A stretch of DNA of 64,000 nucleotides from an uncultured Gammaproteobacteria bacterium (lineage in GTDB: Bacteria > Patescibacteriota > Patescibacteriia > Patescibacteriales > UBA12465): NCBI GenBank assembly GCA_964588435.1, contig CAZPPI010000002.1:3542-67541 (forward strand), written 5' to 3'. The notes under the pieces were generated by a model. It was not told the origin of the DNA. It was given only the letters and a program-made list of their open reading frames with translations, and made no database searches. Of this stretch, positions 5,619 to 61,874 are shown piece by piece. The position numbers and the translations under genes were made by a program. The first letter of the stretch is position 1. Each line of letters begins with the position of its first letter.

Positions 5619-5855
5619 GCCAGCCAATTCATTTTTTTTAAAACGAAAAATTTTAAAATAGATTGCGATTAATAAATCGTAAAATAAAACGCGAATGAGC
5701 AAGCGAAAAAATATAAGTATTACTCTTATTATTGCTGAGATTATTTTAGCAAAAAAACGAACGATTTTTATTATCGTTAGGGCTGTTTCTATAAAAAATT
5801 TTTTTATTTTTAGGTTTAATTTCTGTTTGATATGTTTTTCCCTTTTAAATAATTT

Positions 5856-10826: not shown

Positions 10827-10878
10827 AAATTTAGATTTAGTTTTAATAAAAAGAAAGGTTATTAAAGACAGATTATTT

Positions 10879-11922: not shown

Positions 11923-12019
11923 GATAATTTTTTTTGCCCTTGCGAAATTTGGTTAAGACCATTAAAATTAAAGATAGAGTCGAGATTTTTAAAAATTTTT
12001 GTTAATTTACTACTGTTTT

Positions 12020-41882: not shown

Positions 41883-41899
41883 TAAGGGCATAGATTTTT

Positions 41900-41918
41900 A
41901 GTCTTTAAAGACTTTTTT
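41900..41918 (+). terminator. weak terminator-like hairpin between rsmA and the T4SS-like locus
   Basis: agtct-ttaa-agact hairpin followed by TTTTTT, immediately before ATG 41919. The stem is short. Confidence 0.3.
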
Positions 41919-42581
41919 ATGCTTGAAAATTATCACTTGTCGAGGGAAGACTCTTTAGAAAAAAAAGCTTCAAGAACGCGGAAACTAGTAATTTTTATTT
42001 TTACAGTTGTTGGCGTTTTTTTGTTATTAATAGGTTTTCGTCAGTTAAAAAATAATATCTATAATCCTTTTAGTTTTGCTAATCAGGAAACTAAAGATTT
42101 AAGTTCGGCTGAAGCTGAGGTTCTTTCTTCTTATATCTTGCAGACAACCGATACTGATGTTGATAATTTTTCTGATTATGATGAGTTGTATGTTTATGGG
42201 ACTTCACCTTTTTTGGCTGATACAGATTCCGATGGAATAAGTGATTATGATGAAATTCAGGGTGAAACTGATCCACTTTGTGCTAAAGGTCAAGATTGTT
42301 ATGGATTAAGAGACCCAAGTTTTGTTGTTGCTCCTGATTTATCAGGAAATACCGGAACTAATATTAACGAGACTTCAACAACTCAAGACGAAGACTTGGC
42401 TATTATCGAGGATATAATTAGTGGTCAAGCAGATCCGGCGTTTTTACGAAACCTGCTTTTAAATAATGGTTTTAATGAGGAAGAGTTAAATCAAATAAGT
42501 GATGAGGATTTACAAGCCGCTTATTTTGAGGTTGTTAGTGAACAACTTTCGGCGCAACAAGAAGAAATAAATAATCAATAA
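41919..42581 (+). CDS. secreted/membrane-anchored protein with thrombospondin type-3-like Ca-binding acidic repeats
   Basis: N-terminal TM, then DTDVDNFSDYDEL...DTDSDGISDYDEIQGETDP (DxDxDGxxDxxD-type repeats) and an acidic tail. Confidence 0.6.
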   Translation: MLENYHLSREDSLEKKASRTRKLVIFIFTVVGVFLLLIGFRQLKNNIYNPFSFANQETKDLSSAEAEVLSSYILQTTDTDVDNFSDYDELYVYGTSPFLADTDSDGISDYDEIQGETDPLCAKGQDCYGLRDPSFVVAPDLSGNTGTNINETSTTQDEDLAIIEDIISGQADPAFLRNLLLNNGFNEEELNQISDEDLQAAYFEVVSEQLSAQQEEINNQ

Positions 42582-42593
42582 TATAGAAATAAA

Positions 42594-45500
42594 ATGAAAA
42601 ACTTTTTATTTTTTTTGGAAGATAAAAAACATAAAAATCTTAAAAATTGTTATTGGCTTTTTTTGATTTTTATTTTCGCTTTTTCTTTTAGTTTTTTTCA
42701 GATTCAAGAAGTAAAGGCTCAGGCTGTTGTAACTGATCCCGGAGCCATGGCGCAAAGAACGGTTGAATCGGTCAAACAAACATTTTGGCAGAAATTAGGG
42801 ACGGCTCTGAAGAAAGCGGGGTCCATTGCTTTTAATAGAACTCTACAAAGCTCTTTAAATAAAATTGCTTATGATGCCGCTAATTATATTGGTGCTGGTG
42901 GTGATGGTCAAAAACCATTATTTCGGACTGAGGGGTTGGGTGATTATATGAAAAAGATTGGTGATGAAGCGGGCGGTCAATTTTTAGAAACTTTTGTCAG
43001 AAATCTTGATACCTCCAATGCAACCTCCACTCTTTCTTGTGAAAAGCGTCTAGAGAATTGTTTAACCGATTGTTATCGTCAGGCTAATGGTTACGATCCA
43101 GCTGATGCAGAAAGTCTTAAGTATTTTAGAGATGGTGTGGCGGCTGGTTATGTTGGCGCTGGAGGGCAAGATACAAAGGGCGAGGTTATTGTCGCTGGAC
43201 AAGCTTGTGTTAAACAATGTGAACTTGGAAATACGAGTTGTGTTAGTAATCCTAATAATAATAAGTTAGGCTCAGCTTCTGATGTTAATTCTTTTAATGT
43301 TTGTCAGCCCTCATCAATTGAGGTGAAATTAAAAATCAGTCTTGGTTTAGTTGAACAGAATCGCCCGACTGGTCCAAATTGTACCGCGACCACAATAATT
43401 AATAATTGGGGTGATGATATTGATAAAAAGTTGGCTTCAATTTCTGATGGAAGTTTTTTAAAAAACATTGATAATATTTTTGATCCACGAGCGAATGATT
43501 TAGGAATTTATTTTTTGGCACGAACAGATCTTTCCGCACAATCAAAAATAGAAGTGGATAAGGCTGTATTGGAGGATACAAAAACTGGCGGCTGGATTGA
43601 TGTTAGAAATATTGCCGGTGAATTAAAAGGAACACCCGATACTGCTAAAAACGCTGAAGCCGATGCTAGAGCTATTAGAATAGCAAATTTTGGAAAGACT
43701 ACTGGTGATATTTTTGTTGATGCAGCTAATTTATTTCTAAATCAACTTGCAATTAGTGCTTATAATAATTTGATGCGAAAATTGTCTGATAAAAAAGCTG
43801 ATGCAGGGCCAGCTTTAGCTGATCCTGGAGTTGATCCTAATTTTTCTAGTGTTTCGAGTATGCGAGAGAAAACTAGAGTTCTAATAGAGACAAATTTTGA
43901 GTCGAAAGCTGATTATAGTGTTTTATCTGAATTAGCAGCTTGTCCTAATCCTGGAAATCCTGGACCAAACAATTGTGTAATTGATGACAGGTTTATGCAA
44001 GCTATTGTTGAACAGAAGACTGTTGGTGAAGCGATTAAAGAGGGTTATTTGAACTCGAACTGGAAAGTAGAAAAAGATGTTTTTGCTTCTGCTTATAATA
44101 ATCATTATTCTTTACGTAATATTAAAATTTTAAGAAAATATCGAATCGTCCCTCTTGCTTGGGAGGTTGCGATTGAGAAAGCTTTTGAAGATGAGGAGAT
44201 ACCGGAAAATGTTACCCTTGGTGATTTAGTCGCTTGTTTTTCTGAGAATGATGAATTTGATAAATTTAGTACTAATTTTAAGAGCAGTGATATAAGTTGG
44301 TGCCAGGGTTTAGTTGATCCAAACTGGGTTTTGAAAGCCCCACTTAATTATTGTGGTCAATCTGGCAGTGGTTCCCATATTCTTAATATGACGATGATTC
44401 CTAGTCTTTCTAGTAGTGAACAATTAATTATTACTCGTGCAGATGATTATTGTGCTGATAATCAAAGTTGTATTAAGGAAAGTAAAGAAGGTGCTTGTGA
44501 TCTTTATGGTTATTGTACTGAGGACCGAAGAACTTGGAATTTTGAAAGTGACTCTTGCTCTCCGATAAATAATACTTGTCAAAGTTTTATTAATACAAGT
44601 AATCAAGCAACCGCATCTTATTTAGAAAATACTCTTGATTATGGCGATTGTAACGCTGATTCGGCTGGTTGTCGTCGCTATTCTTTATTTGGTAAATATA
44701 ATGAAAATGGCTCTGTCTCTTGGAATCTTTTTAACAATTTATTCTTTAATAAAAATTTAGTTTCCTGTAATTCTGAAAATGAAGGTTGCTCTGAATTGAT
44801 GCGGATTAAGCCGACTTGGGGATTTAATTTTGTGACCGATTCTGCTTTTAATTTTTTTGGTCTTAATCAGGAACCGGCCGGATCTAAGCTCGGACCATGG
44901 GGAGTATTAGCTGGGGCTAACGCTCAGATTATTAATACTAACGAAGAAGCACCTGATTTTACCGGCAACTCAAAAGCTATTAAAATTTCTGGATCTAATG
45001 GGGCAGGGTTTGAATCAAGCTCTGAAGTTTTTCCTGAAAATTTACAAATTTTAATTAATCAAGATTATACTCTAAGTGCTGATATTTTCTTATTTAGTGG
45101 TGACAGAGTCCAAATGTTTTTAAATCCTGGCGATAAACAAGTGTCAACGGTTGTTAATCAGAGTGGTTATTGGCAAAGAGTTAGTTTAACAATTAATACT
45201 GATTCTGGTTTCTATGAGCCTAAATTTTCCTTTGTTGGTTATGGGTCTTCGGTTAGTTTTTATGTTAAAAATATTAAATTTGAATTAAGTGGTGTCGAGA
45301 CAACTTATAATAATTATGGTAGCTATATTAGTAGGGCAGGAAGCTTGTTATCAGCTCGATTTAGTCAAAAATTATTACCGGCTTATTTACATGAGACTTG
45401 TTATGTTGATTCTGTTTCAGCTTCAAAGGATTATACTTTAAAAAGTGATGCTCCAGCTATTTGTTCTAATTATGCTAGACAATGTAATCAGGATGAGGTT

Positions 45501-48500
45501 GGTTGTGAACTATTTATTAATAGTTATGATAATTTTTCAACTCCAGCTCAAGTAAATAGTTCTGACTATTGTGCTGGTGAATGTGTTGGTTACGACGTTT
45601 ATATTGCTAAAGAAAATTATTTTAATCCAACAGAAGCTCAGAATTTAATTCCTAATTCAACTACTAAATGTGCTCAGTCTGCCGTTGGTTGTAACGAATT
45701 TACTAATTTAGATGCAGTTGCTAAGGGTGGCGAGGGAAAAGAATATTATTCTGAATTAAAGCAATGTATCAAGCCAAATTCTGGGCAATGTGCTAATTTT
45801 TATACCTGGGAGAGCTCTGCTGGTGGTTATCAAATTAAAACTTATAGTTTACAAAAAGACAATAATAATAATCCTTTAATCAACTATGGCGATCAAGCTT
45901 CAGGTGACTGTAGCGATATCTTTGGTCTACCGCTTAGCGATCCTCGTTATAATCCTGATTGTAGAGAATTTAGAAACACTTCCGGCCAGGTTTCCTATCG
46001 TTTAATTTCAAGAGTCATAACTTGTTCAGATAATTGTTTCAGTTATCGTTTAAATAGCAATAATATTCATCCGACCGCTAAAACCCAGGCTGAATGTAAT
46101 AGTAGCAGTGATGAAACTTATTGGAATAGTTCAAATTCTACTTGTCTTACTTGTTTAAATGGCGGTAAGTGGGATACAAATCAAAATGCTTGTGTTTATC
46201 AAGCGATCCCTGGGGAAGGAAAATCTTGCCAAGCCTCTCAAGTCGGCTGTCGGGAGTATAATGGTAATCGTGGTAATGATGTTCGTTTAATTGCCAATTA
46301 TGATTTTGAAAATGGTCTTAGTGGTTGGTATTCAAACTGTACTGATGGAGTTGACTGGAGCCCAGTTGCTAATAATCAACAAGGAAGTTCACTATTCTAT
46401 AATTCTTCCGCTAGTTCCTGTGAATCGTCTGGTGGTGAAAAGGTTGCTAAGATAAAGCTTGGTTTAGAAATTAAAGCTGGAAGAGCTTATAGTTTGAAAT
46501 TTTTAGCTCGTTCTGCTGAAGCTAATATTTTAGAAATTTATTTTGAGAGTGTTGACGGCGATAGATATTTCTTTAATTTATCGGCGGTGGCTGAAAGAGA
46601 TGGCGCAGTATCAATTAAGGGTGGAAATGAATGGGCTATTTATCAAGTTAATTTAGAAAATGTGACTGAAACCCTAGGTTTTGATGGCACTTTAAATATT
46701 TCTGCTAGTCATGATTTTTATATTGATGATTTGCTTTTAACTGAGATTAGTAATCGTTATTATTTTATTAAAGATTCAATTAAAATTCCTGATGTTTGTT
46801 ATTATGATAATTCAGGAAAATATCAAGGCGCTGATTATAATCTAGGCTGCTCTCAATATAAAGACAAAGATAATTATATTCATAATTTACATAATTTTAC
46901 CAAGCTTTGTCCTAGCTCTTCGATTGGTTGTGAACAAATGATTACAACTAATAATTATACTTCGCCCCAGGCTATGTCTTGGAATGTGAATAATTTAGGA
47001 CAATCTTGCGACCCTGGCGATGAAGGGTGTTTAACAGTTGAAAGAGATAAGATAATATATGTGGTCTATGATAAATCAAAATCTTGTCTTGCTAATGACA
47101 TCGGTTGTAGCCGAATGGGGGAGGGTCTTGGTTCTGGTTATGATATTAGTTGGTCTGATGTTTTTAAATTGAATAACCCTAATAATTACAATCAAACTTT
47201 ATGTGCTGAGGGAGATTTAGGTTGTGAGGAATATCGAGATATTAATAGTGGTGGTCTAAGTTACTTTAGAAATCCAGCAAATAATTTATGTGTTTATCGT
47301 TCCAGTAGTAATCCTGAGATTTCTGGTAAGGCTTGGTATAAAGTTCCAGTAAAAAGATGTGATTTAAATAGTAATGGCTCGATTGAAGGACTTGAAGTTG
47401 GGGGGACAATTTGTTCTAAAGATGAAGATTGCGTTTCAGGAACTTGCGTTGTTGATAACAATGATTATACTTGTTCAGTTTCCTATTTAAAAACTATTGG
47501 TTATGGTGGTTTAGGGGCGGCAATCCCTGTACCTGATAAATCGGTGGCTTTGTGTGATGCCGCCGCCGCTGGTTGTACAGAATATATTGATCCAGTTAGT
47601 AAATTTAATCCTAATTTAGTAAAAAATCCCGAATATAATGATGGTGGCAAGGGTTGGGGTGAAGATATTTGGCCTCAAGTTAATGGTAATCCAATAGGTA
47701 AAACTGAACAGGTCATTAGTTTAGAGAGAAATAAACTTTATGGTTTTAGAGCGACGGATAAGAGTGGGGGTGTTGTTGACGGAGGAGTTAGCCTTAAATT
47801 TATTGGTGATGTTAGAATTTTAGGCGAGGAGACTATCGATACGATAAAAAAATTAGGAACTAGTAATAATTTTGGCGATGTAACTAAATTATTAACTATT
47901 AATGCCAATTATCCTTATATTATTTTTAATTCTTTGAGTAATTATTCAGCTCTCTTATCGGGCGGGGACGCAAGTTATATTATTGAATTAAAAGAATTAG
48001 CAATTGACTATAATATTAGAGGGGATGTTGATGGTAGTAGTTGTAATGGTTTAGTAAATTTTGATACTGGTTGTATTTTATTTAATGAACGCTCAATTGC
48101 TGGGGCAGCTGGTTTGGAATTAAATAAATTTAATGCCTTGGCGGGTGATGGTGTGCCAGTCATTAGTTATAGCCCCTATAATGCCAATAAACTATTAAAA
48201 GTAAGACCTGATAGAACTTGTGCTTCTTGGCTTTCTTGTACTTCCTATGCTTTAAATAGTGATGGTTCAAAATCTTGTAGCTCAGTTGCTGAATGTAATC
48301 TATTAGATGATAAAAATGAGTGCCTTAATTTTATTGTCAGACCAGAAGCTGAAAGCATTGTTTTTGATGCAGAAAAAAATCGTAATGCGACCGGTTACGC
48401 TTTGGCGGGAAATTATTATTTTAACAACATTAAGGAAGTTGGTCTTAATACTAGTGTTCGTTATGACTTTGAAGAAAATATTCCTCCTTTGAGCTGTGTA

Positions 48501-50942: not shown

Positions 50943-51006
50943 TTATTTTACTGTTAAGAAGAAAAAAAATAAGGTATAATTTAGAGAGAATTAAGTTTAG
51001 TTGCTT

Positions 51007-51543
51007 ATGCACGTTGATGATAATTTATTAGAAAGGACTAGTGATGAGGATGAGGATGAAGATTTTTCTTTTGATGGTGAGTCTTATGACCAAGGTGAAG
51101 AAGAGAGTCAAATAGGGAATCAGGGTCGAGCAAGAGATGATGTTGACGACAGTGCCCCCCAGTCTTTAAGAGAGGCGAGAATAATAGAGAAAGCTAAACT
51201 TGATAGTCAAAGTAAAAAAGAGGAGTTAAAAAAAACAGCAAAAGCAGAGGCGTCTTCAAAACTTTTAACTATATGCTTTTCCCTTAAAACTCTAGGTGCT
51301 TCCTGGGGACTATCAGCTCTTTATGGAAATGTTCATCTTTTTTTAAAGTATACAGTTAATAATAAATTAAGGGGATTAAGTTTAAGAGAGTCAATGATAT
51401 TGTTGTTGTGTGATGTAATTATAATTTTATTAATTATTATCCAGGTTGCTCTTATTGCTTTAATTGTTGGCTTTATTAAAAATCCTCTTGAAGCTATTAA
51501 AAGTATATTAGAAAGCGTGTTCCCGAATTGGAAAAATATTTAA
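51007..51543 (+). CDS. small protein with acidic N-terminus and C-terminal hydrophobic hairpin (possible T4SS membrane component)
   Basis: DEDEDEDF-rich N-terminal half. Two C-terminal hydrophobic segments (LLTICFSLKTLGASWGLSALYG and MILLLCDVIIILLIIIQVALIALIVGFI). Immediately upstream of the VirB6-like gene. The ORF track starts at TTG 51001. Confidence 0.45.
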   Translation: MHVDDNLLERTSDEDEDEDFSFDGESYDQGEEESQIGNQGRARDDVDDSAPQSLREARIIEKAKLDSQSKKEELKKTAKAEASSKLLTICFSLKTLGASWGLSALYGNVHLFLKYTVNNKLRGLSLRESMILLLCDVIIILLIIIQVALIALIVGFIKNPLEAIKSILESVFPNWKNI

Positions 51544-51574
51544 TTGGTTTTATTAAAAAATAAGTTGCAAAAAA

Positions 51575-54169
51575 ATGAAAATTAATATTTTCAAGAAAAT
51601 AAATAACTCCCTGGGAAAAAAATCAATAATTATTATTAGTGTTTTGGTTTTTTTGGGCTTATCTTTAGCCGCTCCGGCTTCTGCTGATTGGGCAATCACA
51701 GTATTTGGTGGTATCTTAAAAATAATTATTGGCGGGGTTGGACTTATTTTAATTTTAGCTATTAGAGCTTTAGTTTATGTTGCTCAATATTCAACTTTTT
51801 TAAACTCGGGCGCCGTTACCCTTGGCTGGGTTATAGTTCGTGATCTTTGTAATATGTTTTTTGTGGTCGTTCTTTTAATTATTGCTTTTGGAACAATTCT
51901 AAATATAGAAAAATATAATTATAAAAAGTGGTTGCCAAAATTAATTTTGATGGCAATTTTAATTAATTTTTCTAAAACTATTTGTGGGGTTTTAATTGAT
52001 ATTGCTCAAGTGGTGATGCTTACTTTTGTTAATTCTTTTAGCACTATTGGTGCCGGAACCTTGGTTAATGTTTTGGGGATTACCGATATTTTGCAAATAG
52101 CAAAAAGTGGTAATGAAGATATTGGTTTTTGGACGGTTATCGGTGCTTATTTACTTGGCTTAGCCTACGTTATTGTGTCTCTAATAGTAGTTATTACGAT
52201 GATATCGATGCTCGCTATTCGTATTGTCATGATTTGGATTTATGTTGTTTTATCACCTTTAGCTTATCTTTTGTCAGCTTTTCCCGGGGGTCAATCTTAT
52301 GCTTCAAAATGGTGGACTGAGTTTACTAAAAATTTAATTGTTGGACCAGTTTTAGCTTTTTTTCTTTGGTTATCTTTTGCTGCTTTAACCAGTGATCAAG
52401 TAAGAGATGCTCAAACAATAGATGAGGCTAGTAGATTAGAGCAAAATAAGTTATTAGGTTTTGATCCTGATGAGGCCTCAATCGAAACTAAAGCTTCTAG
52501 TCCTGGAGCTTTAATTAAATTTATCATTGCAATTGGGATGCTTGTTGGTGGTCTTAAAATTGCTCAAGAGGTTGGCGGTGCCGCCGGTTCTATGGCAGGC
52601 AAGGGAATGGCAGCGGTTAATAAAGCGGGCAAGATTGGTTTAGCGGGTGCGGCGGCGATTACTGGAGTAAGAGCGGCTAAGGGAATTTATAAAAATTATA
52701 GCTCTGCCAGAAAATCAGCCCGAGAAGATAAATATAAGAATGCCGCAGTTAAGATGGCGGATGGAATTGGGAGGGCTAAAAAAAGTGTCGGCGGAGCGGT
52801 TACTGGTGGTTTGCAAAAAGTTAAAGATAGTACTTTTGGTAGAAGAGAGGCAAAAGCTAAAAAACTTCAAGCTGAGGCTAGAGTAGAGAGTACAGAAATC
52901 GATACAATAAAACAGAACCTTAATCAAAAGAAGGGTGTGGTCGGTGATTATCAGTATGATGAGGGTGTTAAGAGTTGGCGTCATAGCATAACAGGAATGG
53001 TAACTGGAGAAGAAAGAGTTAGAGAAAAGGCTGATGAGATTATTAAAGCTAAAGATGACGTTGTTAGCGCTAAACAAACAGAGGCAGAGAAACTACATTT
53101 CAAACAACAAAAAATAGATGATGTTTTGAAATATGGAGCCTTAGCTGCTGGAGGCATAGCTGGACTTGCCCTTGGCGGCGTCCCAGGACTTCTTGTTGCT
53201 GGAGGGGCCGCAGTTGGAGCTTCGCGTGGTTATGATAAATTTAAAAATGCTGGTAAAACCGATTTAGGGATTGCTTCTGGATTTCGTCTAAAGGAGATTA
53301 AGAAGGAAAAAGATGCTTTGAAAGATGAGGATAATGGAAGTGTGATTGCTAAGATGGATGATCGTACTATTAGCGCTTTTGAGAGAGCAGCTGCGGCTTT
53401 AGAAGCGATGGATAGAGGTTTGCTTTCCTCTGAACAAGCAGAATCTAAGAAAAAAATGATTGCGAATGAGATTGGCGGAGTCGATGAGAATGGTGATTTT
53501 AAGGATAAAAAAGTTGGTAATTATTTTGAATCGATTGCTGAAAGAAAAAATATTTCCGCTTCTTCTGATTTTCAAGATTTAAAAAGTGAAAATCCTGAAG
53601 TAAAGAGTCGAGCTGAAAGAAATGTTAGAGATAATGTTGAAAAAGGTAATTATAGCCTAGAATCTCTTGACGTAGGAGCAATTAGAGCGATTGGTCCTCA
53701 ATTAGTTGCCGCGATGAAGGCTAAAGACTTTGGCGCTCAATTTACTGCAATGAAAGACCAAGCTAAAAAGCGAGAGATTGTTGAGATGTTAAAGAAACTG
53801 GTTAATAAAGATACTAGCGGATTGCCAAGCGGTAGTATTGAAAAAAACAATGCTGAAGCGGGAAAATTAGAGGCGATGAAGAGATTGAATCAAGTTACGG
53901 ATTTAAATACGGCAACGGTTGGAATTTCTGATCCCGTAGATAGACAGGCTAAAAAAGAAGCGATTTTGGCTGATTTATCTTTTACTCAATTGGCGGATGT
54001 TTTTAATGGCAATGATAAAAAACAGCAAGATGCAATTGTTGAAGCTATACAAAAGTCTAGTCGTGAGGATAAACTTAGTATTTTTGTGACCGCAGAAAAA
54101 TCTTTAAGGGGAACATCTCAGGTTGCTAAAGATTTGCGCTCTGAGGCTAAGCTTAATTTAGAAGTTTGA
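51575..54169 (+). CDS. VirB6/TrbL-like polytopic T4SS inner-membrane protein with ~500-aa hydrophilic C-terminal extension
   Basis: Signal/TM followed by 6-7 TM helices in about 300 aa, with an architecture like TrbL/VirB6/ConG. Then a Gly/Ala-rich linker and a long charged C-terminal domain. Confidence 0.55.
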   Translation: MKINIFKKINNSLGKKSIIIISVLVFLGLSLAAPASADWAITVFGGILKIIIGGVGLILILAIRALVYVAQYSTFLNSGAVTLGWVIVRDLCNMFFVVVLLIIAFGTILNIEKYNYKKWLPKLILMAILINFSKTICGVLIDIAQVVMLTFVNSFSTIGAGTLVNVLGITDILQIAKSGNEDIGFWTVIGAYLLGLAYVIVSLIVVITMISMLAIRIVMIWIYVVLSPLAYLLSAFPGGQSYASKWWTEFTKNLIVGPVLAFFLWLSFAALTSDQVRDAQTIDEASRLEQNKLLGFDPDEASIETKASSPGALIKFIIAIGMLVGGLKIAQEVGGAAGSMAGKGMAAVNKAGKIGLAGAAAITGVRAAKGIYKNYSSARKSAREDKYKNAAVKMADGIGRAKKSVGGAVTGGLQKVKDSTFGRREAKAKKLQAEARVESTEIDTIKQNLNQKKGVVGDYQYDEGVKSWRHSITGMVTGEERVREKADEIIKAKDDVVSAKQTEAEKLHFKQQKIDDVLKYGALAAGGIAGLALGGVPGLLVAGGAAVGASRGYDKFKNAGKTDLGIASGFRLKEIKKEKDALKDEDNGSVIAKMDDRTISAFERAAAALEAMDRGLLSSEQAESKKKMIANEIGGVDENGDFKDKKVGNYFESIAERKNISASSDFQDLKSENPEVKSRAERNVRDNVEKGNYSLESLDVGAIRAIGPQLVAAMKAKDFGAQFTAMKDQAKKREIVEMLKKLVNKDTSGLPSGSIEKNNAEAGKLEAMKRLNQVTDLNTATVGISDPVDRQAKKEAILADLSFTQLADVFNGNDKKQQDAIVEAIQKSSREDKLSIFVTAEKSLRGTSQVAKDLRSEAKLNLEV

Positions 54170-54241
54170 TAAAGCCAAGAGAAGATCCTTTCTGTTAGAA
54201 TATTTAATGATAAGCTATTGTTAAAAAACAAAATTTAAACT

Positions 54242-55408
54242 ATGCCAACAAATATAACTGATAAACAATTTAATGAGAAATATGTCGACTTACCCGAGGA
54301 GGCAAAGTTCTTTTTTAGTTCTGAAAAAAATGGCGCAAATATTTTAGCCCTTGCTTCTGAATATAAGTTAGAACCAGACATTATTTATTCTTTAAATTTT
54401 TTAGCAGTTAATTCCGGTTTTGACTTTTCTCTACTTGAGGAAAAAATTAAAACTTTAAATTTAAGTGGCATAAGCTCAACCAGGTTTTGGCAGGATTTTA
54501 TTGGTCGCTTATTATTGCCAATTTCTGAGGCGATGGAAGAAAGTTCTGACGGGAAAATTAATATTGCTAAGGTTTTAAAAAGCACGGGGGCAAAATTGGA
54601 AAAATATCAAAGTTATGTTAATCAATTAAGAAATGAAATTGAGGATGATATTTTAAAAGCAGCCGAAGAAGAGGTTGAAGCTTATAAAAAGAGTTTTGAT
54701 ATTAAAGAAGAGAGCCAATATATTTTTAATCTTTTATCCGAGGATATTTTAATAGTTTTAAATTCTAAAAGTTTTGAAGCGGCCGCCGCTTTAAATCGTA
54801 GTTTAATTTTTCTCTTATTTAATGCCGAGAATTTTAAGGATGAAGCTTTGAGAAAAATTTTTGCTAACAAGCAATTAATTGGTGAGGAAAAAATTTCTGT
54901 TGACAATAAAGAAGTTATGCCAACAGTTTCTGCTTGGCTTAAGGATTTTATCAAAAAAAACAGTTCAAGTTTATTTGATGATTTAATTTTAGCTCAATAC
55001 CTAAATACCTCTGAAAACGCTAAAGTTCTTCAACCAAAAGAAAAAGAGCTTTTAGGTAATTTAATTCGTTTTTATAAAAATATTGCTTTTTTTCCAGAAA
55101 GCATGAACGAAATACCGCCTCAGAAATGGCAAATATTCCCTTTTGACGCGACTAGTTATTGGCAAGAGATTGAGGGTTCAGTAAAAAATAAAAAACAACT
55201 CGGTTTACCAACGGAACCAGAAATAATTGAAGAGGATGTTGGGGAGAGTAACGATGTCCTAAGTGAGAAAGATTTTAAGCCGGAAAATTATGATGATAGT
55301 GCGGAACTGAGAAATTTACGAGAGTTATTAGCTTCTTTCCCGCCCGCTAGTTTAGAAAGAAAAGCGATTAACGAAGAAATTAAAAGATTACAACGAGATA
55401 AAAAATAA
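54242..55408 (+). CDS. hypothetical cytoplasmic protein (388 aa) within the T4SS-like locus
   Basis: No TM and no recognisable motif. Its stop lies 1 nt from the next gene's start. Confidence 0.5.
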   Translation: MPTNITDKQFNEKYVDLPEEAKFFFSSEKNGANILALASEYKLEPDIIYSLNFLAVNSGFDFSLLEEKIKTLNLSGISSTRFWQDFIGRLLLPISEAMEESSDGKINIAKVLKSTGAKLEKYQSYVNQLRNEIEDDILKAAEEEVEAYKKSFDIKEESQYIFNLLSEDILIVLNSKSFEAAAALNRSLIFLLFNAENFKDEALRKIFANKQLIGEEKISVDNKEVMPTVSAWLKDFIKKNSSSLFDDLILAQYLNTSENAKVLQPKEKELLGNLIRFYKNIAFFPESMNEIPPQKWQIFPFDATSYWQEIEGSVKNKKQLGLPTEPEIIEEDVGESNDVLSEKDFKPENYDDSAELRNLRELLASFPPASLERKAINEEIKRLQRDKK

Positions 55409-55409
55409 A

Positions 55410-56819
55410 ATGTTTGATTATTTGCAAAAATTCAATAATTTACCAAATACTTTACGCGATAAAGTTTCTTCACCGACAGCAATGCGGGCAGTTTCGGCTT
55501 TGGAATTAAAATATAAAGTTGATTTAGCCGCTCTGGTGATGAAAGTGATGGCAAAAACTTTAAAAGTTAAGGATTTGCCAGAGTATTTTATTAATGAATT
55601 TTCTTTGAGCCAGGAGGACGCTCGCGCTTTAAACGACGATATTTTAAAAGAAATTTTTGCACCGGTTAGTGAATATTTATCTTTAGACGAAACTAAAAAG
55701 TCGCCGAAAATTAATGAATTTTCTTCAACTTTAGTTAGAGAGTTTGGCTTATCTTTGCCGAGTGAAGATCTTTATTCTCGCTTAAATAATATAATGTTAA
55801 CTTTTTTAAAAGGAGTTAGAAGCAAAATAGATGCTAAAAGCGCTTTGATGAAAAAGGTTGAGTTTGGAGGATTAGGCTTAACTCAGGAAGAGGCGGATCG
55901 AGTTTTTAAATTAGCTGAAAAAAGGGATATTCAAAAAGATTCTTTAGTTATTAAAGACCTTCCAATCGTTGAAGAGGAAGTAAAGAATTCTTCGCTTGAT
56001 CAAGCTCTTATAGATCAGGCGGTAAAAGAAGAAATTTCAACCGCGCCAATATTAGAAAAAAGTTCGAAAGAAAAATTGGATAAAATTATTATGGCGGCGG
56101 AGATGAATTCAGTCCCAGTTTATGATTTAAAGAAATCTTTAGTTGAAAAAACAGATATAGATAAAGAATCTTTATTACCAAAAGAAGAAAAACAGAATAT
56201 CTTGCCAGTAACAGAGAATAGGCTTAAGCTTGAGGAAAAATTGGAAGTAAAAACCGGATTAACTCAAGAAGAGACTCAGGCAGAAATTCGAGAACCAGTT
56301 CAAGAAACAATACCAGTACCGGCTCAAGAAGAAGTTCAGACAAAAATATCGCCGATTGAAGAAGCTGATTTAAAGAAAGATTTAAAAGGGGAGCAAGAAA
56401 ATTATGTTGCCCCAACAACTTTAAATTTGAATTTTAAACGCCCAGCGCCGACTTCAAATAAACCAAGGATGGAAGATATTAAACCGGTAGCAAAGGCAAT
56501 GAGTCCGATTGATGAATTAGCGTTTCTTGATTTAGTAAATTTTCGCCGTCTTTCTGATAATTCTGATGAAGCAGTTTTGAAGATTTTTAATAAAATTAAA
56601 TTGTTGGAAAAGGATGGCTATGATAAGATGGTTTCGGGGGTAAAAGCTTGGCGCCAAAATGAAGTTAATCGTTTATATGTAAAAATTGGCCAGGAGACTT
56701 TACTTAAAGGCCTGTCCTTGAAAGAGGTTATTGTTGAACGTCAAAAAAGAAACATGCCTTTTTTAAAGGTTGAAGAAATTAATGCAATTTCCAAATTGAA
56801 TGGAAGGTTATCTTTTTAA
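55410..56819 (+). CDS. hypothetical charged protein (469 aa) within the T4SS-like locus
   Basis: Lys/Glu-rich, with no TM and no NTP-binding motif, so it is not a VirD4 or VirB11. Confidence 0.5.
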   Translation: MFDYLQKFNNLPNTLRDKVSSPTAMRAVSALELKYKVDLAALVMKVMAKTLKVKDLPEYFINEFSLSQEDARALNDDILKEIFAPVSEYLSLDETKKSPKINEFSSTLVREFGLSLPSEDLYSRLNNIMLTFLKGVRSKIDAKSALMKKVEFGGLGLTQEEADRVFKLAEKRDIQKDSLVIKDLPIVEEEVKNSSLDQALIDQAVKEEISTAPILEKSSKEKLDKIIMAAEMNSVPVYDLKKSLVEKTDIDKESLLPKEEKQNILPVTENRLKLEEKLEVKTGLTQEETQAEIREPVQETIPVPAQEEVQTKISPIEEADLKKDLKGEQENYVAPTTLNLNFKRPAPTSNKPRMEDIKPVAKAMSPIDELAFLDLVNFRRLSDNSDEAVLKIFNKIKLLEKDGYDKMVSGVKAWRQNEVNRLYVKIGQETLLKGLSLKEVIVERQKRNMPFLKVEEINAISKLNGRLSF

Positions 56820-56822
56820 AAT

Positions 56823-57254
56823 ATGCAGCAATTTATCGTACCACAATTTATTGATGTTGAAGCAAAAATTATTGGCCCGATTACCGCTCCTCAATTTTTG
56901 ATTTTACTTGCAGCTACTTTAATAATAGCTCTTTGTTATCGCCTTCTTCATTTCACTCCTTTCCTAATAGTTACTGTTATAGTCCTTGGTTTAGCTGGCA
57001 CTTTCGCCTTTGTTAAAATAAATGGCCGATCTTTTCATTATTTTATTTTAAATTTATTACAAACAACTCGCCGACCCAATGTTAGAGTTTGGAATCATAA
57101 AATTGTCGTTAATGAGCAAACAGAAAAAACATCAATTCAGAAAATTGACTATAAACCTCTACCAAAAAAAGAGTATAAAAAATCAAGACTAGCAGAGATC
57201 TCTTTGATCGTTGATACTGGTGGTAAATATAGAGGGGAAAATCAGAATCTTTAA
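56823..57254 (+). CDS. VirB3-like small two-TM protein (ConD/PrgI-like position)
   Basis: 143 aa with two TM helices (ITAPQFLILLAATLIIALCY and FLIVTVIVLGLAGTFAFV). Sits directly upstream of VirB4, which is the conserved VirB3-VirB4 arrangement. Confidence 0.45.
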   Translation: MQQFIVPQFIDVEAKIIGPITAPQFLILLAATLIIALCYRLLHFTPFLIVTVIVLGLAGTFAFVKINGRSFHYFILNLLQTTRRPNVRVWNHKIVVNEQTEKTSIQKIDYKPLPKKEYKKSRLAEISLIVDTGGKYRGENQNL

Positions 57255-57263
57255 AATATAATT

Positions 57264-57929
57264 ATGGCTAAAAATAAGATTAAAAATTCAACCCAAGAGC
57301 ATCTTGATATCGCTGAAATCAGAGATGATATTGTTGTTATGAAAGATGGAACCTTACGTTCTGTTATTATGGTTTCTAGTATTAATTTTTCTTTAAAGAG
57401 TGAAGACGGTCAAAACGCAGTTATTGGCGCTTATGTTCGCTTTTTGAATAATTTAAATTTTCCTTTACAAATTATTATTCAATCCAGAGAATTAGATATT
57501 GATAATTATTTAGAGTACTTAAAAATAAAAGAGAAGGAACAGACGAATCGTTTATTAAAAGTACAAACGGCCGACTATATTGAATATATTAAAGAATTAA
57601 CTTCGTTAGGAAAAATAATGAATAAAAGATTTTTTGTCGTTGTTCCCTATAGCGCCTTGTCAGATAAACGAAAAGGATTTTTTAGTCTCTTAGGCGAGGC
57701 TCTGCGACCAGCAACAATTTTAAAATTAAAAGAAAAAACTTTTAGAAAATATCAGGAAATGCTTGATCGTCGGGTTGATAGTGTAATTGGTGGGCTAGAA
57801 TCTATGGGGGTAACAACGACGAGACTTGATACCCAGAGTTTAATTGAATTATATTATAAAACTTATAATCCAGAATCATCAAGAAACCAGGAATTACCAG
57901 ATTTAGATAAGATGAGAGTTGAGCGTTAA
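57264..57929 (+). CDS. virB4: VirB4/TrbE-family ATPase, N-terminal domain fragment (in-frame with next ORF, separated by a single TAA)
   Basis: HLDIAEIRDDIVVMKDGTLRSVIMVSSINFSLKSEDGQNAVIGAYVRFLNNLNFPLQIIIQ matches the VirB4/CagE/TrbE N-terminal pattern. It ends at TAA 57927-57929, in the same frame as the ATG at 57939. Confidence 0.6.
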   Translation: MAKNKIKNSTQEHLDIAEIRDDIVVMKDGTLRSVIMVSSINFSLKSEDGQNAVIGAYVRFLNNLNFPLQIIIQSRELDIDNYLEYLKIKEKEQTNRLLKVQTADYIEYIKELTSLGKIMNKRFFVVVPYSALSDKRKGFFSLLGEALRPATILKLKEKTFRKYQEMLDRRVDSVIGGLESMGVTTTRLDTQSLIELYYKTYNPESSRNQELPDLDKMRVER

Positions 57930-57938
57930 TTTTTATCT

Positions 57939-59825
57939 ATGATAAATTTCAATAAGAAAGTAACAAAAAAAATAAAGATGAATGAGCCAGTTTCTCTCAG
58001 AAAAAAAACTGAGGCTTCTTTAATTGAGAGAGATCCTCTTCTAACTAGAGAAATTATTGAAGAGGAAAAGACTTTTCGTCGTGGAGTTTTATCGGTCCGT
58101 GATATTATTGCTCCCTCTGCTTTAAAGGTTGAAACAAATAATATTCGTTTGGGTAATAAATTTTTACGAACAATTTTCGTTGTCGCTTATCCGCGTTATA
58201 TTTCAGTTGGTTGGTTTGCTCCCATTATTAATTTAAATGTTACGTTTGATATTTCGATGTTCTTCTATCCGATTGCTAGCTCTATTGTTCTAAAACAATT
58301 AAAGGATAAGGTTGGTAATTTAGAGGCACAAATTATTGCTGATGCTGACAAGGGAGCTGCTCGTGATCCCTTAAGAGAAACGGCTTTACGAGATATTGAA
58401 TATTTGCGAGATGCTTTAACTCAGGGGACGGAAAAATTTTTTCAATTTGCCCTTTATACTACTTTATATGCTGATAATATAGAAGATCTCGATCGTTTGT
58501 CAGACCAGGTTGAGGATATTTTCGGTTCACGTTTGGTCAATTCTCGTCGGGTTTATTATCAGGCTGAACAAGGCTTTAATTCAACCTTACCACTAGGAAA
58601 TGATGAACTCTATATTACTTTTAATATGAATTCTTCGCCGATTGCCTCTTCTTTTCCATTTATTTCATCGGAGTTAACTAGTGACAGCGGAATTTTGTAT
58701 GGTATCAATCGTCATAATAATAGTTTAATTATTTTTGATCGTTTTTCTTTACAAAACGCTAACTCGGTTGTTTTTGCTACCTCTGGGGCGGGAAAAAGTT
58801 ATGCAATTAAATTAGAAATTTTACGTTCCTTGATGCTCGGCACTGAAGTTATTGTTATTGATCCAGAAAGGGAATATAAACATCTTGCTGAAGCTGTTGG
58901 CGGAACTTATGTTAATATTTCTTTATCATCTGATAATAAAATTAACCCTTTTGATTTACCTAGTTCAATTGGCGGCGACGCTAGACCAAAAGATATTATT
59001 AGAAGTGCGGTTATTACAATCAAGGGCTTGATTAAGTTGATGATTGGCGGTCTTAATTATGATGAAGATTCTTTGATGGATAGAGCATTACTCGAAACTT
59101 ATGCTAAGAAAGATATTACCCCAGACGCTGATTTGTCAAAAATTGAGCCGCCAATTATGTCAGATTTAGAACAGGTATTAGAGGGGATGGAGGGCGGAAA
59201 TAATCTAGTGTCGCGACTAAAAAAATATACCAAAGGAACTTTTGCTGGTTTATTAAATAACCAAACTAATGTGCAAATGGATAATCAGTTGGTTTGTTTT
59301 TCCGTTCGAGATTTAGAAGATGAGCTTAGACCGATGGCGATTTATACAATTGTTAATTATATTTGGAACATTGTTAGGAGCGAGATGAAAAAAAGAATTT
59401 TAGTTATTGATGAAGCTTGGTGGATGATGCAAAATGAGGATAGTGCTAAATTTATTTTTGCCCTTGTTAAGCGTTGTCGTAAGTATTATTTAGGAGTTAC
59501 AACAATTACTCAAGATGTTAATGACTTCTTAACTTCACCTTACGGTCAAGCGATTGTTAATAATTCTTCTTTACAGATTTTGATGAAACAAGCTCCGGCC
59601 GCAATTGAGCAAATTCAAAAAACTTTTTTACTTACTGAGGGTGAGAAATATTTATTGCTTGAATGTGGAATTGGTGAGGGAATATTTTTTGCTGGTAATA
59701 AACATGTAGCGATGAAAGTCGTTGCTTCTTATACCGAGGACCAATTAATAACCTCTGATCCACGTCAATTGCTAGAAATCGAAGAAGCAAAGAAAGACTT
59801 TGCGGAGAGTCAGGACCTAGAATAA
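57939..59825 (+). CDS. virB4: VirB4/TrbE-family T4SS ATPase, C-terminal ATPase portion
   Basis: Walker A VVFATSGAGKSYAIKL, Walker B RILVIDEAWWMM, and a C-terminal VirB4-type domain. 221 aa + 628 aa gives a typical VirB4 length. Confidence 0.8.
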   Translation: MINFNKKVTKKIKMNEPVSLRKKTEASLIERDPLLTREIIEEEKTFRRGVLSVRDIIAPSALKVETNNIRLGNKFLRTIFVVAYPRYISVGWFAPIINLNVTFDISMFFYPIASSIVLKQLKDKVGNLEAQIIADADKGAARDPLRETALRDIEYLRDALTQGTEKFFQFALYTTLYADNIEDLDRLSDQVEDIFGSRLVNSRRVYYQAEQGFNSTLPLGNDELYITFNMNSSPIASSFPFISSELTSDSGILYGINRHNNSLIIFDRFSLQNANSVVFATSGAGKSYAIKLEILRSLMLGTEVIVIDPEREYKHLAEAVGGTYVNISLSSDNKINPFDLPSSIGGDARPKDIIRSAVITIKGLIKLMIGGLNYDEDSLMDRALLETYAKKDITPDADLSKIEPPIMSDLEQVLEGMEGGNNLVSRLKKYTKGTFAGLLNNQTNVQMDNQLVCFSVRDLEDELRPMAIYTIVNYIWNIVRSEMKKRILVIDEAWWMMQNEDSAKFIFALVKRCRKYYLGVTTITQDVNDFLTSPYGQAIVNNSSLQILMKQAPAAIEQIQKTFLLTEGEKYLLLECGIGEGIFFAGNKHVAMKVVASYTEDQLITSDPRQLLEIEEAKKDFAESQDLE

Positions 59826-59862
59826 AGTACAGCTAATTTTTAAAATAATTAATTTAAAATAT

Positions 59863-60477
59863 ATGGATAATAATAGAAAAAAGATTGGTATTATGTTAAT
59901 AATTTTAGGGCTTTTAATAATTGCTTTAATAATTTATTTTGGTTTTATTAAAAAAGACAAAGACGAGCCAATTATAACTGAAAACCCTGTGGTTGATTTA
60001 CCGTTACCGGCTGGAGATGACTTAACAAATCCTGGAGATATAGCTCGTTCTTGGCAACCAAATTTAAGCGCTGAAGCGGATCATGTTTTTAATGAAACGG
60101 ATTTGGAAAAACGTGCTAAAGCTTTTGCTGAGAGATTTGGCTCTTATTCGAATCAATCAAATTATAGTAATTTTTCCGACCTAGAAATATTTATGACCAA
60201 GAGTTTCTCTGATTGGACCGAATCTTATGTCGAACAGTTAAGAGAGAGTGCTCCTGGTTATGAAGTCTATTATGGGATAAGTACAAGAGCTTTAACGACT
60301 GAGTTAATTAGTTTTGATGAAGCCTCTAGCAAGGCGGAGATTAATGTTTTAACCGAAAGAAGTGAATCTTCAGCCAATGGCGGTGATTTAGAGCCTTATC
60401 AACAAAAAATACTTTTAAAATTCAATAAAGTAGCTAATGATTGGTTGGTTGACGCTGCTTATTGGGAGAAAAGATAA
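59863..60477 (+). CDS. membrane-anchored periplasmic protein, VirB8-like position (hypothetical)
   Basis: N-terminal TM (IGIMLIILGLLIIALIIYFGFI) plus a hydrophilic domain of about 170 aa, directly after VirB4. The size and topology fit a VirB8/NTF2-like bitopic protein, but no motif was verified. Confidence 0.35.
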   Translation: MDNNRKKIGIMLIILGLLIIALIIYFGFIKKDKDEPIITENPVVDLPLPAGDDLTNPGDIARSWQPNLSAEADHVFNETDLEKRAKAFAERFGSYSNQSNYSNFSDLEIFMTKSFSDWTESYVEQLRESAPGYEVYYGISTRALTTELISFDEASSKAEINVLTERSESSANGGDLEPYQQKILLKFNKVANDWLVDAAYWEKR

Positions 60478-60482
60478 AATTT

Positions 60483-61829
60483 ATGGCGGGAATGAAAAAA
60501 ATATTTTCTTGTACGAATTGTGGCGCCCAATCTCTGAAATGGAGTGGGCGCTGTTTGGAGTGTGGTTCTTGGGGAACTTTAGTTGAGGAATTACTAGATG
60601 ATAAGGAAGTGAAAAGAGAGGCATTAAAAAAGATTGCTGGCGCTGAGATGATTTCTCTTGGTTCCTTAAAGCAGGAAAAATTAACTCGTTTTAAAACTAA
60701 TATTTCTGAAATCGATAGAGTTTTGGGCGGAGGAATTGTTCCCGGTTCTTTAATTCTATTAAGCGGAGAGCCAGGAATTGGTAAATCAACTTTAGTCGCC
60801 CAGATTGCTTCCTTAGCTGGGGAAGGAGAGCTTACTGCTTATGTTAGCGGTGAGGAATCAGCTTTGCAGGTTCGTGATCGAATGGCGCGCTTAGAAGTTA
60901 ATTTCGAAAAAATTAAATTCATTTCTGAGACTAATGTGGAAAAAATCATTGCTGCTGTTTTAAAAGAAAAACCAGCAGTTTTAGTTGTTGATTCAATTCA
61001 AACAGTTTATTCCTCTTTAATTCCTTCTGAGGCGGGCGGGATTTCTCAAATTAGAACGGCGGCGGTTAAATTTTTAGAACTTGCTAAAGAAAATAATATT
61101 GCTGTCATTTTAATTGGCCACATAACTAAAGATGGCCAAGTTGCGGGTCCGAAGTCATTAGAGCATATAGTTGACACCGTCTTGTATCTTGAAAATGAGG
61201 CGGGAAGTAATCATTGTTTTTTAAGAGCAACAAAAAATCGTTTTGGTTCAGTTAATGAGCTTGGAGTTTTAGAAATGACAAGCAAAGGTTTTAAAGAAAT
61301 TAAAAATCCTGGAGCAATTTTTATTGAAACAGTTGGAGGTAATTTATCGGGTTCGGTTGTTTCCTGTGTAATGGAGGGGAGTCGACCATTTTTAGTTGAT
61401 GTTCAGGCTTTAGTTTCAAAAACAGTTTTTGGTTATCCACAAAGGAAGGCGAGCGGCTTTGATTTAAATCGTTTAGCTGTTTTAAGTGCAGTTATTAGCA
61501 AGCGAACAAAAATTAATTTAACTGCTCAAGATATAATTTTAAATTTAGCGGGCGGTTTAAAAGCTTCTGATCCCGCTCTTGATTTAGCAGTTGCTGTCGC
61601 AATTATATCTTCTGTTAGTGATAAAAAAATTTTTCGTGAAACAATTGTTTTAGGAGAGATTGGTTTAGGCGGAGAAATTAGGCCGGTTAGTAAATTTGAG
61701 CAGAGAGTTAAGGAGGCGGAGCGGCTTGGTTTTAAAAAAGTTATTGCTCCAATGGTTAATATTAAAGATTCTAAATTAGAATTTTTAAGAGTAAAAAATT
61801 TGCAAGAGATAGTTGAGCTTATTAAATAA
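60483..61829 (+). CDS. radA: DNA repair protein RadA/Sms
   Basis: C4 zinc finger CTNCGAQSLKWSGRCLECGSWG, RecA-like Walker A GEPGIGKSTL, KNRFG motif, and a Lon-protease-like C-terminal domain. Start placed at ATG 60483. Confidence 0.9.
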   Translation: MAGMKKIFSCTNCGAQSLKWSGRCLECGSWGTLVEELLDDKEVKREALKKIAGAEMISLGSLKQEKLTRFKTNISEIDRVLGGGIVPGSLILLSGEPGIGKSTLVAQIASLAGEGELTAYVSGEESALQVRDRMARLEVNFEKIKFISETNVEKIIAAVLKEKPAVLVVDSIQTVYSSLIPSEAGGISQIRTAAVKFLELAKENNIAVILIGHITKDGQVAGPKSLEHIVDTVLYLENEAGSNHCFLRATKNRFGSVNELGVLEMTSKGFKEIKNPGAIFIETVGGNLSGSVVSCVMEGSRPFLVDVQALVSKTVFGYPQRKASGFDLNRLAVLSAVISKRTKINLTAQDIILNLAGGLKASDPALDLAVAVAIISSVSDKKIFRETIVLGEIGLGGEIRPVSKFEQRVKEAERLGFKKVIAPMVNIKDSKLEFLRVKNLQEIVELIK

Positions 61830-61842
61830 AGCCAATAAAAAT

Positions 61843-61874
61843 AAAAAAAACGAGCTTGGGAGCTCGTTTTATCG
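61843..61874 (+). terminator. Rho-independent terminator after radA
   Basis: aaaaaaaacgagct-tggg-agctcgtttt is a hairpin flanked by an A-run and a T-run, so it could act in both directions. Confidence 0.75.

Follow-up and report, generated by a model that had tools for sequence, protein, structure and literature searches.

A chromosomal type IV secretion locus, probably of the Patescibacteria type, with a cysteine-rich giant protein and radA, in a Falkowbacteria-like genome

Results

We analyzed a 64-kb window of a bacterial genome (contig CAZPPI010000002.1, assembly GCA_964588435.1); "the window" is this whole stretch, and all absences reported here hold within it. The window contains a tight block of + strand genes at 41919–61829, delimited by open reading frame (ORF) listing and translation, which encodes components of a type IV secretion system (T4SS). 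The locus is very probably a chromosomally fixed, MPF_FATA-related T4SS of the Patescibacteria type, in a Candidatus Falkowbacteria-like (class ABY1) genome, and we propose for it a role in host contact. This kind of system is already published for the phylum (PMC12102498, PMC10633639, PMC12857230). New here are a conserved module of a thrombospondin type 3-like (TSP3) protein and a ~2,700-aa Cys-rich giant, and a paralogous pair of proteins without known fold (u388 and u469), which appear undescribed.

A first-pass annotation, made from the sequence alone, had drawn the block at 41919–60477 and listed in it a TSP3-like protein, a 2782-aa Cys-rich surface giant, a small acidic/membrane protein, a VirB6/TrbL-like protein with a long C-terminal extension, two unassigned cytoplasmic proteins, a VirB3-like protein with two transmembrane (TM) segments, a VirB4 ATPase with Walker A and B motifs, and a bitopic protein in the VirB8 position. 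All of these ORFs are present on the + strand where it placed them. It missed a TrsD-like ORF at 57264–57929 and probably ended the block one gene early, before radA. Homology and fold were assessed with Pfam (gathering thresholds, GA), NCBIfam (curated cutoffs), PDB profile searches, hhalign, AlphaFold2 and Foldseek. Scanning species-representative genomes with the window VirB4 yielded 80 related loci (VirB4 identity 79–94%), all in Candidatus Falkowbacteria or unclassified Patescibacteria metagenome-assembled genomes, some with submitter names that are obviously wrong.

The gene for the VirB4 ATPase lies at 57939–59825 (+). Its 628-aa product is the C-terminal motor part of a VirB4 of the MPF_FATA/CD1110 type. 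It scored 363.3 bits (cutoff 325) against the NCBIfam model conju_CD1110 (VirB4-like conjugal transfer ATPase, CD1110 family), with further matches to Pfam P-loop_TraG (6e-30), AAA_10 and TIGR00929 (6.8e-38). The PDB profile search returned the VirB4 C-domain 4ag5 (1.6e-44) and TrwK (3e-5). Both the Walker A (ATSGAGKS) and Walker B (ILVIDE) motifs are present; together with these matches, they place the locus in the T4SS superfamily. Membership in the CedB or ComB families of DNA importers was not supported: the scores against CedB (44 bits, E 1.2e-11, cutoff 700) and CedD (20 bits, cutoff 600) fall far below the NCBIfam cutoffs.

A 221-aa TrsD/TraC-like protein (57264–57929, +) is the separate-gene equivalent of the VirB4 N-terminal domain. 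It matched NCBIfam TrsD (3.5e-8, below the curated cutoff), VirB4_plasma at positions 97–233 (1.2e-11) and CD1110 at positions 10–90, and the 628-aa VirB4 covers the remaining positions of the full-length VirB4 models, complementing it. The gene lies 9 nt upstream of virB4 and is present in 78 of 79 relatives (65–86% identical), and the same split occurs on a Pontibacillus plasmid; the split is therefore not a frameshift. Homologs in distant relatives carry the domain PF26593 (TraC-like). By these matches, the TrsD-like gene beside virB4 corresponds to the arrangement of Patescibacteria-clade and MPF_FATA T4SSs. Immediately upstream, a 143-aa PrgI family protein, the VirB3 equivalent (56823–57254, +; PF12666, 29.5 bits, GA 27), has two TM helices, at residues 20–38 and 48–66.

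The 864-aa protein encoded at 51575–54169 (+) is an extended VirB6/TrbL-like polytopic channel subunit, as judged transitively through TrbL-positive homologs. A ~340-aa TM domain, whose ~7 TM segments lie within residues 1–330, is followed by a 519-aa hydrophilic, Ala/Lys/Gly-rich extension. The total length varies from 838 to 1223 aa among relatives, with variation in the extension. A family profile of the TM domain retrieved 168 proteins, several of which are TrbL-positive and one above threshold. This protein (P0067; family profile E 1.5e-87, 49% identical to the window protein) scored 37.2 bits against TrbL (GA 25.9). P0042 and P0021 scored 24.2 and 22.6 bits, and three further homologs in total lie at 19–24 bits. 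The first-pass assignment was thus upheld in its architecture and family, and lacked a direct TrbL match. PDB profile searches gave low-complexity matches only.

The last T4SS gene, at 59863–60477 (+), encodes a 204-aa bitopic protein with an N-terminal TM helix and, in its predicted fold, an NTF2-like α+β domain. The top PDB match of the AlphaFold2 model (pLDDT 83.6) in Foldseek was the VirB8 domain of PrgL from pCF10 (7aed, E 2.2e-5). Further matches included CagV, Rickettsia VirB8, R388 TrwG, pKM101 TraE, pIP501 TraH and TcpC. Of the 14 best matches (E 2e-5 to 8e-4), 13 are VirB8-family or VirB8-like chains, and rank 9 is an IcmL-like T4SS protein. No VirB8 match was found at the sequence level with Pfam, NCBIfam or further sequence searches. 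The protein is VirB8-like by its modelled fold.

Two VirB2-like pilin genes, overlooked in the first pass, lie on the opposite strand 7–10 kb upstream of the locus, ~15–17 genes upstream of virB4. A 312-aa secreted protein (33866–34804, −) has a visible signal peptide and joins a VirB2-like T4SS pilin hairpin to a Cys-rich domain at the C-terminus (T4SS_pilin, 30.0 bits, GA 26.6). Its 381-aa paralog (31804–32949, −) combines a signal peptide and a VirB2-like hairpin with a Cys-rich domain at the N-terminus and a Cys/His-rich one at the C-terminus, and scored 26.0 bits, just under GA. The two proteins are 65% identical over the 80-aa hairpin (E 2e-34). By these scores, VirB2-like genes lie within about 20 coding sequences of virB4, as expected of the Patescibacteria clade. 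The gene order on the − strand is POR-alpha, pilin-like, POR-beta, pilin-like (POR, pyruvate:ferredoxin oxidoreductase subunits), and no pilin-like gene was found within ±10 kb of virB4 in the relatives. Both proteins are far larger than usual pilins. An M15/LAS peptidase domain considered for the 381-aa protein was dropped, as neither Pfam nor the PDB gave a match.

Pfam scans of every window ORF of at least 100 aa revealed no relaxase, type IV coupling protein (T4CP; VirD4), VirB11, VirB7/9/10 outer-membrane core component or integrase. The sole FtsK-like ATPase of the window (11999–14611) is a true FtsK with 4TM, alpha and gamma domains. Neither comEC nor comEA was seen. Att-like flanking repeats were also absent, the repeats found being AT-rich chance matches only. 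The first pass had likewise reported no VirD4, relaxase, VirB11 or VirB7/9/10, and the integrase, relaxase and att sites that it had named as the mark of a known conjugative element do not bound the block within the 64 kb. Nor did its other ground for refutation, a lack of significant VirB4/VirB6 HMM matches, apply. Its reading of a monoderm-type T4SS in the Candidate Phyla Radiation (CPR) fits the MPF_FATA-related parts and the Falkowbacteria/Patescibacteria nearest relatives. Its description of the component set as "reduced" does not hold: the set is the normal Patescibacteria complement, plus TrsD and the VirB2-like pilins.

The first two genes of the block encode the TSP3 protein and the giant. 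The 220-aa bitopic TSP3 protein (41919–42581, +; Ca-binding, TSP3_bac 25.4 bits, GA 25) has one TM segment at residues 22–40, and a TSP3_bac protein also stands directly upstream of the distant giant homologs in loci L082 and L083. The giant (42594–50942, +; 2782 aa) is secreted, with a signal peptide, 89 Cys residues and jelly-roll/CBM-like (carbohydrate-binding module) modules. It contains 14 C-x6-C motifs (2.8±1.6 in shuffles) and 10 copies of C-x4-[AVIE]GC-x-[ER]-[YFM]. A search with its first 460 residues matched 757 cluster representatives, of which 151 reached E≤1e-30. Members are mostly 2,400–3,000 aa long (median of the top 150, 2655 aa), and homologs carry CBM_4_9. In the 19 loci whose flank reaches far enough, the C-terminal end of the giant is encoded upstream of VirB6.

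The N-terminus of the giant family consists of a signal peptide, a conserved [AQ]-x-[PV]-V-x-D start and a conserved helical segment. The mature N-terminus of the window giant (AQAVVTDPGAMAQ) resembles VirB5 mature N-termini (AQFVVSDPATEA; AQFVVTDPGNTY (Ti and Sym plasmids); AQVAVFDNASIAQ) at the motif level only, and the similarity covers just the signal peptide and ~15 residues. It scored 23.4 bits against DUF4141, below the GA of 30, and 3 of 29 family members match this domain. With hhalign, comparison with four VirB5 proteins gave a probability of 31.6% over 32 columns, and the PDB profile search gave no match. The VirB5 likeness is a lead rather than a finding. The giant is a candidate host-binding adhesin or T4SS tip component.

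Between the giant and VirB6, a 180-aa small membrane protein (51001–51543, +) has an acidic cytoplasmic N-terminus, where 26 of the initial 90 residues are Asp/Glu; its C-terminus is hydrophobic and hairpin-like. An ORF of the same architecture precedes VirB6 in ~30 relatives, forming a positional family. No significant Pfam or NCBIfam match was obtained; the family has two weak CD1108 matches only (E 0.0085). Its candidacy as a VirB2 pilin remained unproven, with T4SS_pilin, TrbC and Mbov_0395 unmatched in this protein and 27 positional homologs.

Downstream of VirB6, two genes encode the cytoplasmic proteins u388 (54242–55408, +; 388 aa) and u469 (55410–56819, +; 469 aa), neither of which has TM segments or matches in Pfam, NCBIfam or PDB sequence searches. 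Protein u388 is helical, and its N-terminal ~90-aa domain is shared with u469; the two families align with a probability of 98.3% (hhalign, E 1.9e-14, 88 columns). Protein u469 has two N-terminal helical domains, a disordered linker and, at the C-terminus, a helical domain of high conservation, and its predicted structure comprises three confident all-helical domains and a ~170-aa disordered Pro-rich linker. No Pfam domain was present in the 120 u469 homologs listed of 396 found, and an HMM of its N-domain revealed no further paralog in the window. The u469 gene is always immediately upstream of prgI, and u388 follows VirB6 in 44 of 79 relatives. This paralogous pair may work on the cytoplasmic side of the membrane, perhaps as adaptors that replace a coupling protein.

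The block is probably one transcription unit, extending from 41.9 to 61.9 kb with radA as its last gene. We drew it in this way because intergenic gaps are short (1–72 nt), strong hairpins are found at the two block ends only, and radA adjacency is conserved. RadA (60462–61829, +; Pfam KaiC/ATPase, ChlI, Zn-ribbon and Lon_C domains) follows the VirB8-like gene without a gap and without a structured intergenic region, and its start lies ≤60 nt from the VirB8-like stop in 60 of 73 relatives. Inside the block, 10 terminator-like sites were observed (12.1 in shuffles), and RNA folding revealed no stable fold in the three larger internal gaps.

The upstream hairpin, between ksgA and the TSP3 gene (41886–41924, +), has a folding free energy (dG) of −11.9 kcal/mol and a z-score of −4.55, with 0 of 200 shuffles as stable. 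It follows a promoter-like TTGCGA-18-TATAAT with TG at 41854–41883, and its base pairing spans the AUG start of the TSP3 gene. The structure may be a ksgA terminator, a 5′ regulatory structure, or both, acting on termination and translation. The first pass had noted a terminator at 41900; the hairpin is real, but it is not weak, as had been said, and covers the first start codon. After radA, a hairpin at 61847–61874 (+; ACGAGCUUGGGAGCUCGU followed by the U-tract UUUUAU; dG −12.4, z −4.53) resembles an intrinsic terminator and would form the downstream boundary.

The order u469-PrgI-TrsD-VirB4-VirB8-like-RadA is kept in essentially all of the ~80 loci, with gaps of a few nt. VirB6-u388 lies directly upstream of this VirB4 module in about half of the relatives; in the other half, pyruvate phosphate dikinase (PPDK) pieces and genes for S-adenosylmethionine synthetase, S-adenosylhomocysteine hydrolase and PfkB separate the two. 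The two T4SS modules are thus physically uncouplable. In L005, L016 and L025, tandem genes upstream of the u469 homolog, containing a PEP-utilizer mobile domain only and uncharacterized N-terminal regions, adjoin a PPDK_N gene; in some relatives they stand between the two modules.

Three distant relatives, contigs with giant homologs ~30–37% identical to the window giant, all keep the cassette KsgA, TSP3_bac, giant (CBM_4_9), and proteins of ~220 aa, ~850–1010 aa and ~350–400 aa, continuing with a ~415–475-aa protein, PrgI, TraC-like, VirB4 and a ~190-aa protein. In L082, a SNF2-family helicase gene (9975–12929) interrupts the cassette after the giant, ahead of the small membrane protein gene, and a RhuM-family gene (17478–18101) follows the u388 homolog.

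Median identity to the ~79 relatives was 84% for VirB4, 76% for TrsD, 67% for RadA and 56% for RecG. The greater conservation of VirB4 and TrsD than of the housekeeping proteins argues for strong purifying selection. The best VirB4 matches outside the CPR are 35% identical and belong to the CD1110 family on Bacillota and Actinomycetota plasmids. The closest is on a Pontibacillus sp. plasmid (L081, NZ_CP062975.1, 351.8–361.4 kb; 35% identity), an 898-kb replicon annotated as "non-mobilizable", where the locus lies beside flagellar genes. The gene order is pilin-like, pilin-like, TrbL-like (779 aa), VirB3/TraL-like, TrsD-like, VirB4 and a 1050-aa DD-metalloendopeptidase. This locus may be another non-conjugative use of the same T4SS type.

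GC content is 30–39% across the whole window, and that of the locus equals its surroundings. Housekeeping genes elsewhere in the window include polA, ruvC, ftsK, rpoBC, murJ, lepA and recJ. Directly upstream of the locus are a DsbA-like gene, ExoIII, leuS and ksgA; radA and recG are downstream. The DsbA-like gene (36835–37605, −) encodes a membrane-anchored thioredoxin (Pfam Thioredoxin_4, 3.3e-17; DSBA, 3.3e-10) that, by position only, might assist disulfide formation in the Cys-rich secreted proteins. One distant giant homolog has the same DsbA(−)/ExoIII/LeuRS/KsgA arrangement upstream.

The RecG-like ORF (62813–63967, −) is just 384 aa, with a DEAD domain from residue 2 and no N-terminal wedge domain in the ORF; a truncated or split gene, or disruption of the true start close to the end of the window, could explain this. 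At 4452–5702 (−), ~52 kb from virB4, an M23 peptidase carrying two LysM domains is a possible VirB1-type wall hydrolase; peptidase/LysM domains of this kind are found in VirB1 homologs (PMC12102498). ORFs at 24102–25652 (516 aa), 5856–6872 (−, 338 aa), 14667–15029 (120 aa) and 61926–62240 (−, 104 aa) had no Pfam match. The last of these, downstream of radA, is kept in a few close relatives only.

Discussion

In the T4SS that we propose, the membrane translocon consists of the extended VirB6/TrbL, PrgI/VirB3, the split VirB4 (TrsD-like protein and motor) and the VirB8-like protein. Conserved synteny suggests that the Ca-binding TSP3 membrane protein and the disulfide-rich, CBM-bearing giant form an extracellular host-contact module. 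The giant and the pilins would first attach the cell to its host bacterium. VirB4 and TrsD would then power the passage of macromolecules via VirB6/VirB3/VirB8 across the single membrane and the wall.

The cargo could plausibly be host or environmental nucleic acid, taken up to feed RadA-dependent recombination or nucleotide salvage; export of protein into the host is a lesser prospect, and conjugative export of DNA a very improbable one. We lean toward nucleic-acid uptake because of the radA operon link and the association of ABY1 systems with comF and recG. A fuller version, which we offer as speculation of low probability, is that the giant, with its TSP3 partner, is an adhesin or tip that docks by a VirB5-like N-terminus on VirB6 or the pilin stalk and selects the host, and that the machine, co-transcribed with radA and equipped with two lineage-specific cytoplasmic proteins replacing the coupling protein, imports host nucleic acid. 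In one cultured member of the phylum, tubes that are possibly T4SS pili and uptake of host RNA were described (preprint, bioRxiv 10.64898/2026.06.21.733656).

Several points weigh against our interpretation of the locus and its cargo. TrbL had no direct match in Pfam or NCBIfam searches of the 864-aa protein, its N-terminal 360 aa or 28 close homologs. The Foldseek TM-scores of the VirB8-like protein are just 0.4–0.7, on a predicted structure. Placement of VirB4 in the Patescibacteria clade is suggested only by its nearest sequence neighbors, and the giant/TSP3 module and u388/u469 are linked to the T4SS via synteny only. The radA adjacency may be neutral synteny inside one family. A T4CP, relaxase or comEC could lie elsewhere in the genome beyond the window, and VirD4 homologs are far from virB4 in many Patescibacteria (PMC12102498). 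In Saccharibacteria, the T4SS is essential and comEC-dependent transformation is not, which does not speak for a simple competence role.

The same machine might instead export effectors or toxins into the attached host, with radA a mere housekeeping neighbor. We regard this as rather unlikely. No coupling protein or relaxase lies near the locus, protein export or an alternative role was suggested for the Saccharibacteria system (Wang et al. 2023, PMC10633639), and the long disordered linkers and conserved terminal domains of u388/u469 could fit secreted substrates or chaperone-adaptors. However, the locus contains no recognizable effector, toxin or immunity genes, and translocation of effectors generally requires a T4CP, Ptl and Brucella VirB being exceptions (PMC12102498). 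The conservation of the radA link in 60 of 73 relatives also speaks against protein export, and the comF/recG/radA association in ABY1 points to nucleic acid (PMC12102498).

Alternatively, an independent, Sec-exported adhesin pair, made up of the TSP3 protein and the giant, might merely adjoin the T4SS and work without it. Both have ordinary Sec-type signal or anchor sequences, the VirB5 likeness of the giant is confined to a motif, and in about half of the relatives metabolic genes stand between the VirB6-u388 and VirB4 modules, which can therefore be uncoupled. This alternative is unlikely in our view: all three distant relatives examined retain the order TSP3-giant-small membrane protein-VirB6 even though their giants are only ~30–37% identical to that of the window, the giant C-terminus precedes VirB6 in all 19 loci mentioned above, and the genes are separated by gaps of 12–58 nt with no internal terminator. 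An integrated conjugative element, or a remnant of one, that exports DNA is highly improbable: the VirB4 does belong to a conjugation-type family (CD1110, MPF_FATA) and its closest non-CPR relatives are on plasmids, but the window has no relaxase, T4CP, integrase or flanking direct repeats, GC is that of the surroundings, the block stays at one chromosomal site, flanked by ksgA and radA, across ~80 species-level relatives, and VirB4 is more conserved than RadA and RecG.

Patescibacteria account for much of bacterial diversity and are host-dependent, and the T4SS is essential in the one lineage tested genetically. The Patescibacteria-type T4SS described here is a clean ABY1/Falkowbacteria example, with a VirB8-like subunit, hard to find in other classes, and a radA operon link. 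The TSP3 protein, the giant family with its hundreds of representatives, and u388/u469 are candidates for host-recognition and substrate-handling parts.

Comparison with known systems

The window locus resembles the T4SSs of DNA uptake (Helicobacter pylori ComB and Sulfolobales Ced) in being VirB4-based and in having no relaxase, in our case within 64 kb. Further points of likeness are its probable operon link to the recombination gene radA and a weak similarity of its VirB4 to CedB (E 1.2e-11). Unlike the window locus, ComB is a diderm system with VirB7/9/10, and the CedB score of the window VirB4 is far below the cutoff. Extended VirB6 proteins (defined in PMC12857230), such as the VirB6 paralogs of Rickettsiales, likewise have at least 5 hydrophobic helices at the N-terminus and a large hydrophilic domain toward the C-terminus, but the 519-aa extension in the window has no detectable similarity to the Rickettsiales extensions. 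VirB5/TrbJ minor pilins (Agrobacterium VirB5) and DUF4141 proteins, the latter encoded beside traJ and close to traG in Bacteroidetes conjugative transposons, show a short N-terminal resemblance to the giant, whose gene lies upstream of VirB6; the giant is >10 times longer.

With the monoderm MPF_FATA conjugative systems (pCF10 Prg/Pcf, pGO1 Trs and C. difficile CTn2 CD1110), the locus shares a VirB4 above the CD1110 cutoff and PrgI. The TrsD-like split N-domain is as in the pGO1 subclass, and the PrgL VirB8 fold of pCF10 is the best structural match. In contrast to these systems, the window locus is fixed in the chromosome, and its cluster has no relaxase, T4CP (PcfC/VirD4), PrgB-type LPXTG adhesin or VirB1-type hydrolase. 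Another difference is its VirB2-like pilins, absent from the classical Gram-positive systems. The order pilin/VirB6/VirB3/TrsD/VirB4 is common to the window locus and the Pontibacillus megaplasmid, in spite of a VirB4 identity of 35%.

The closest likeness is to the Patescibacteria-clade T4SSs (PMC12102498, PMC10633639). In a survey of 3,035 genomes, their VirB4 formed a monophyletic clade nested in MPF_FATA, TrsD was the commonest virB4 companion, PrgI, VirB6 and VirB2-like paralogs were present, and relaxases were almost absent; ksgA was often near, and no adhesins were detected (Quinonero-Coronel et al. 2025, PMC12102498). In a 2025 review, these systems are set apart as a newcomer group of their own, and the "extended VirB6" is defined (PMC12857230). 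Epibiotic growth of Southlakia epibionticum requires its T4SS genes (SEML1_0006-0019; Wang et al. 2023, PMC10633639). The window virB4, unlike that of Southlakia, is not followed by a peptidase or lysozyme gene. The pilin-like genes of the window also differ from those of the clade in being large, Cys-rich and interleaved with POR genes rather than arrayed in a cluster, and neither the TSP3 and ~2,700-aa giant module nor the u388/u469 family is mentioned in PMC12102498 or PMC10633639.

The agreement extends to a chromosomal location, a TrsD next to a VirB4 of MPF_FATA ancestry, PrgI/VirB3, VirB6, VirB2-like pilins with sequence-divergent paralogs, a neighborhood without relaxase, T4CP or outer-membrane core, and a close ksgA. 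In class ABY1, T4SSs are co-located with radA, recG and comF, and this class holds nearly all detectable VirB8 homologs (PMC12102498). The window locus resembles the ABY1 systems in both respects, with its linkage to radA and recG and its VirB8-like protein.

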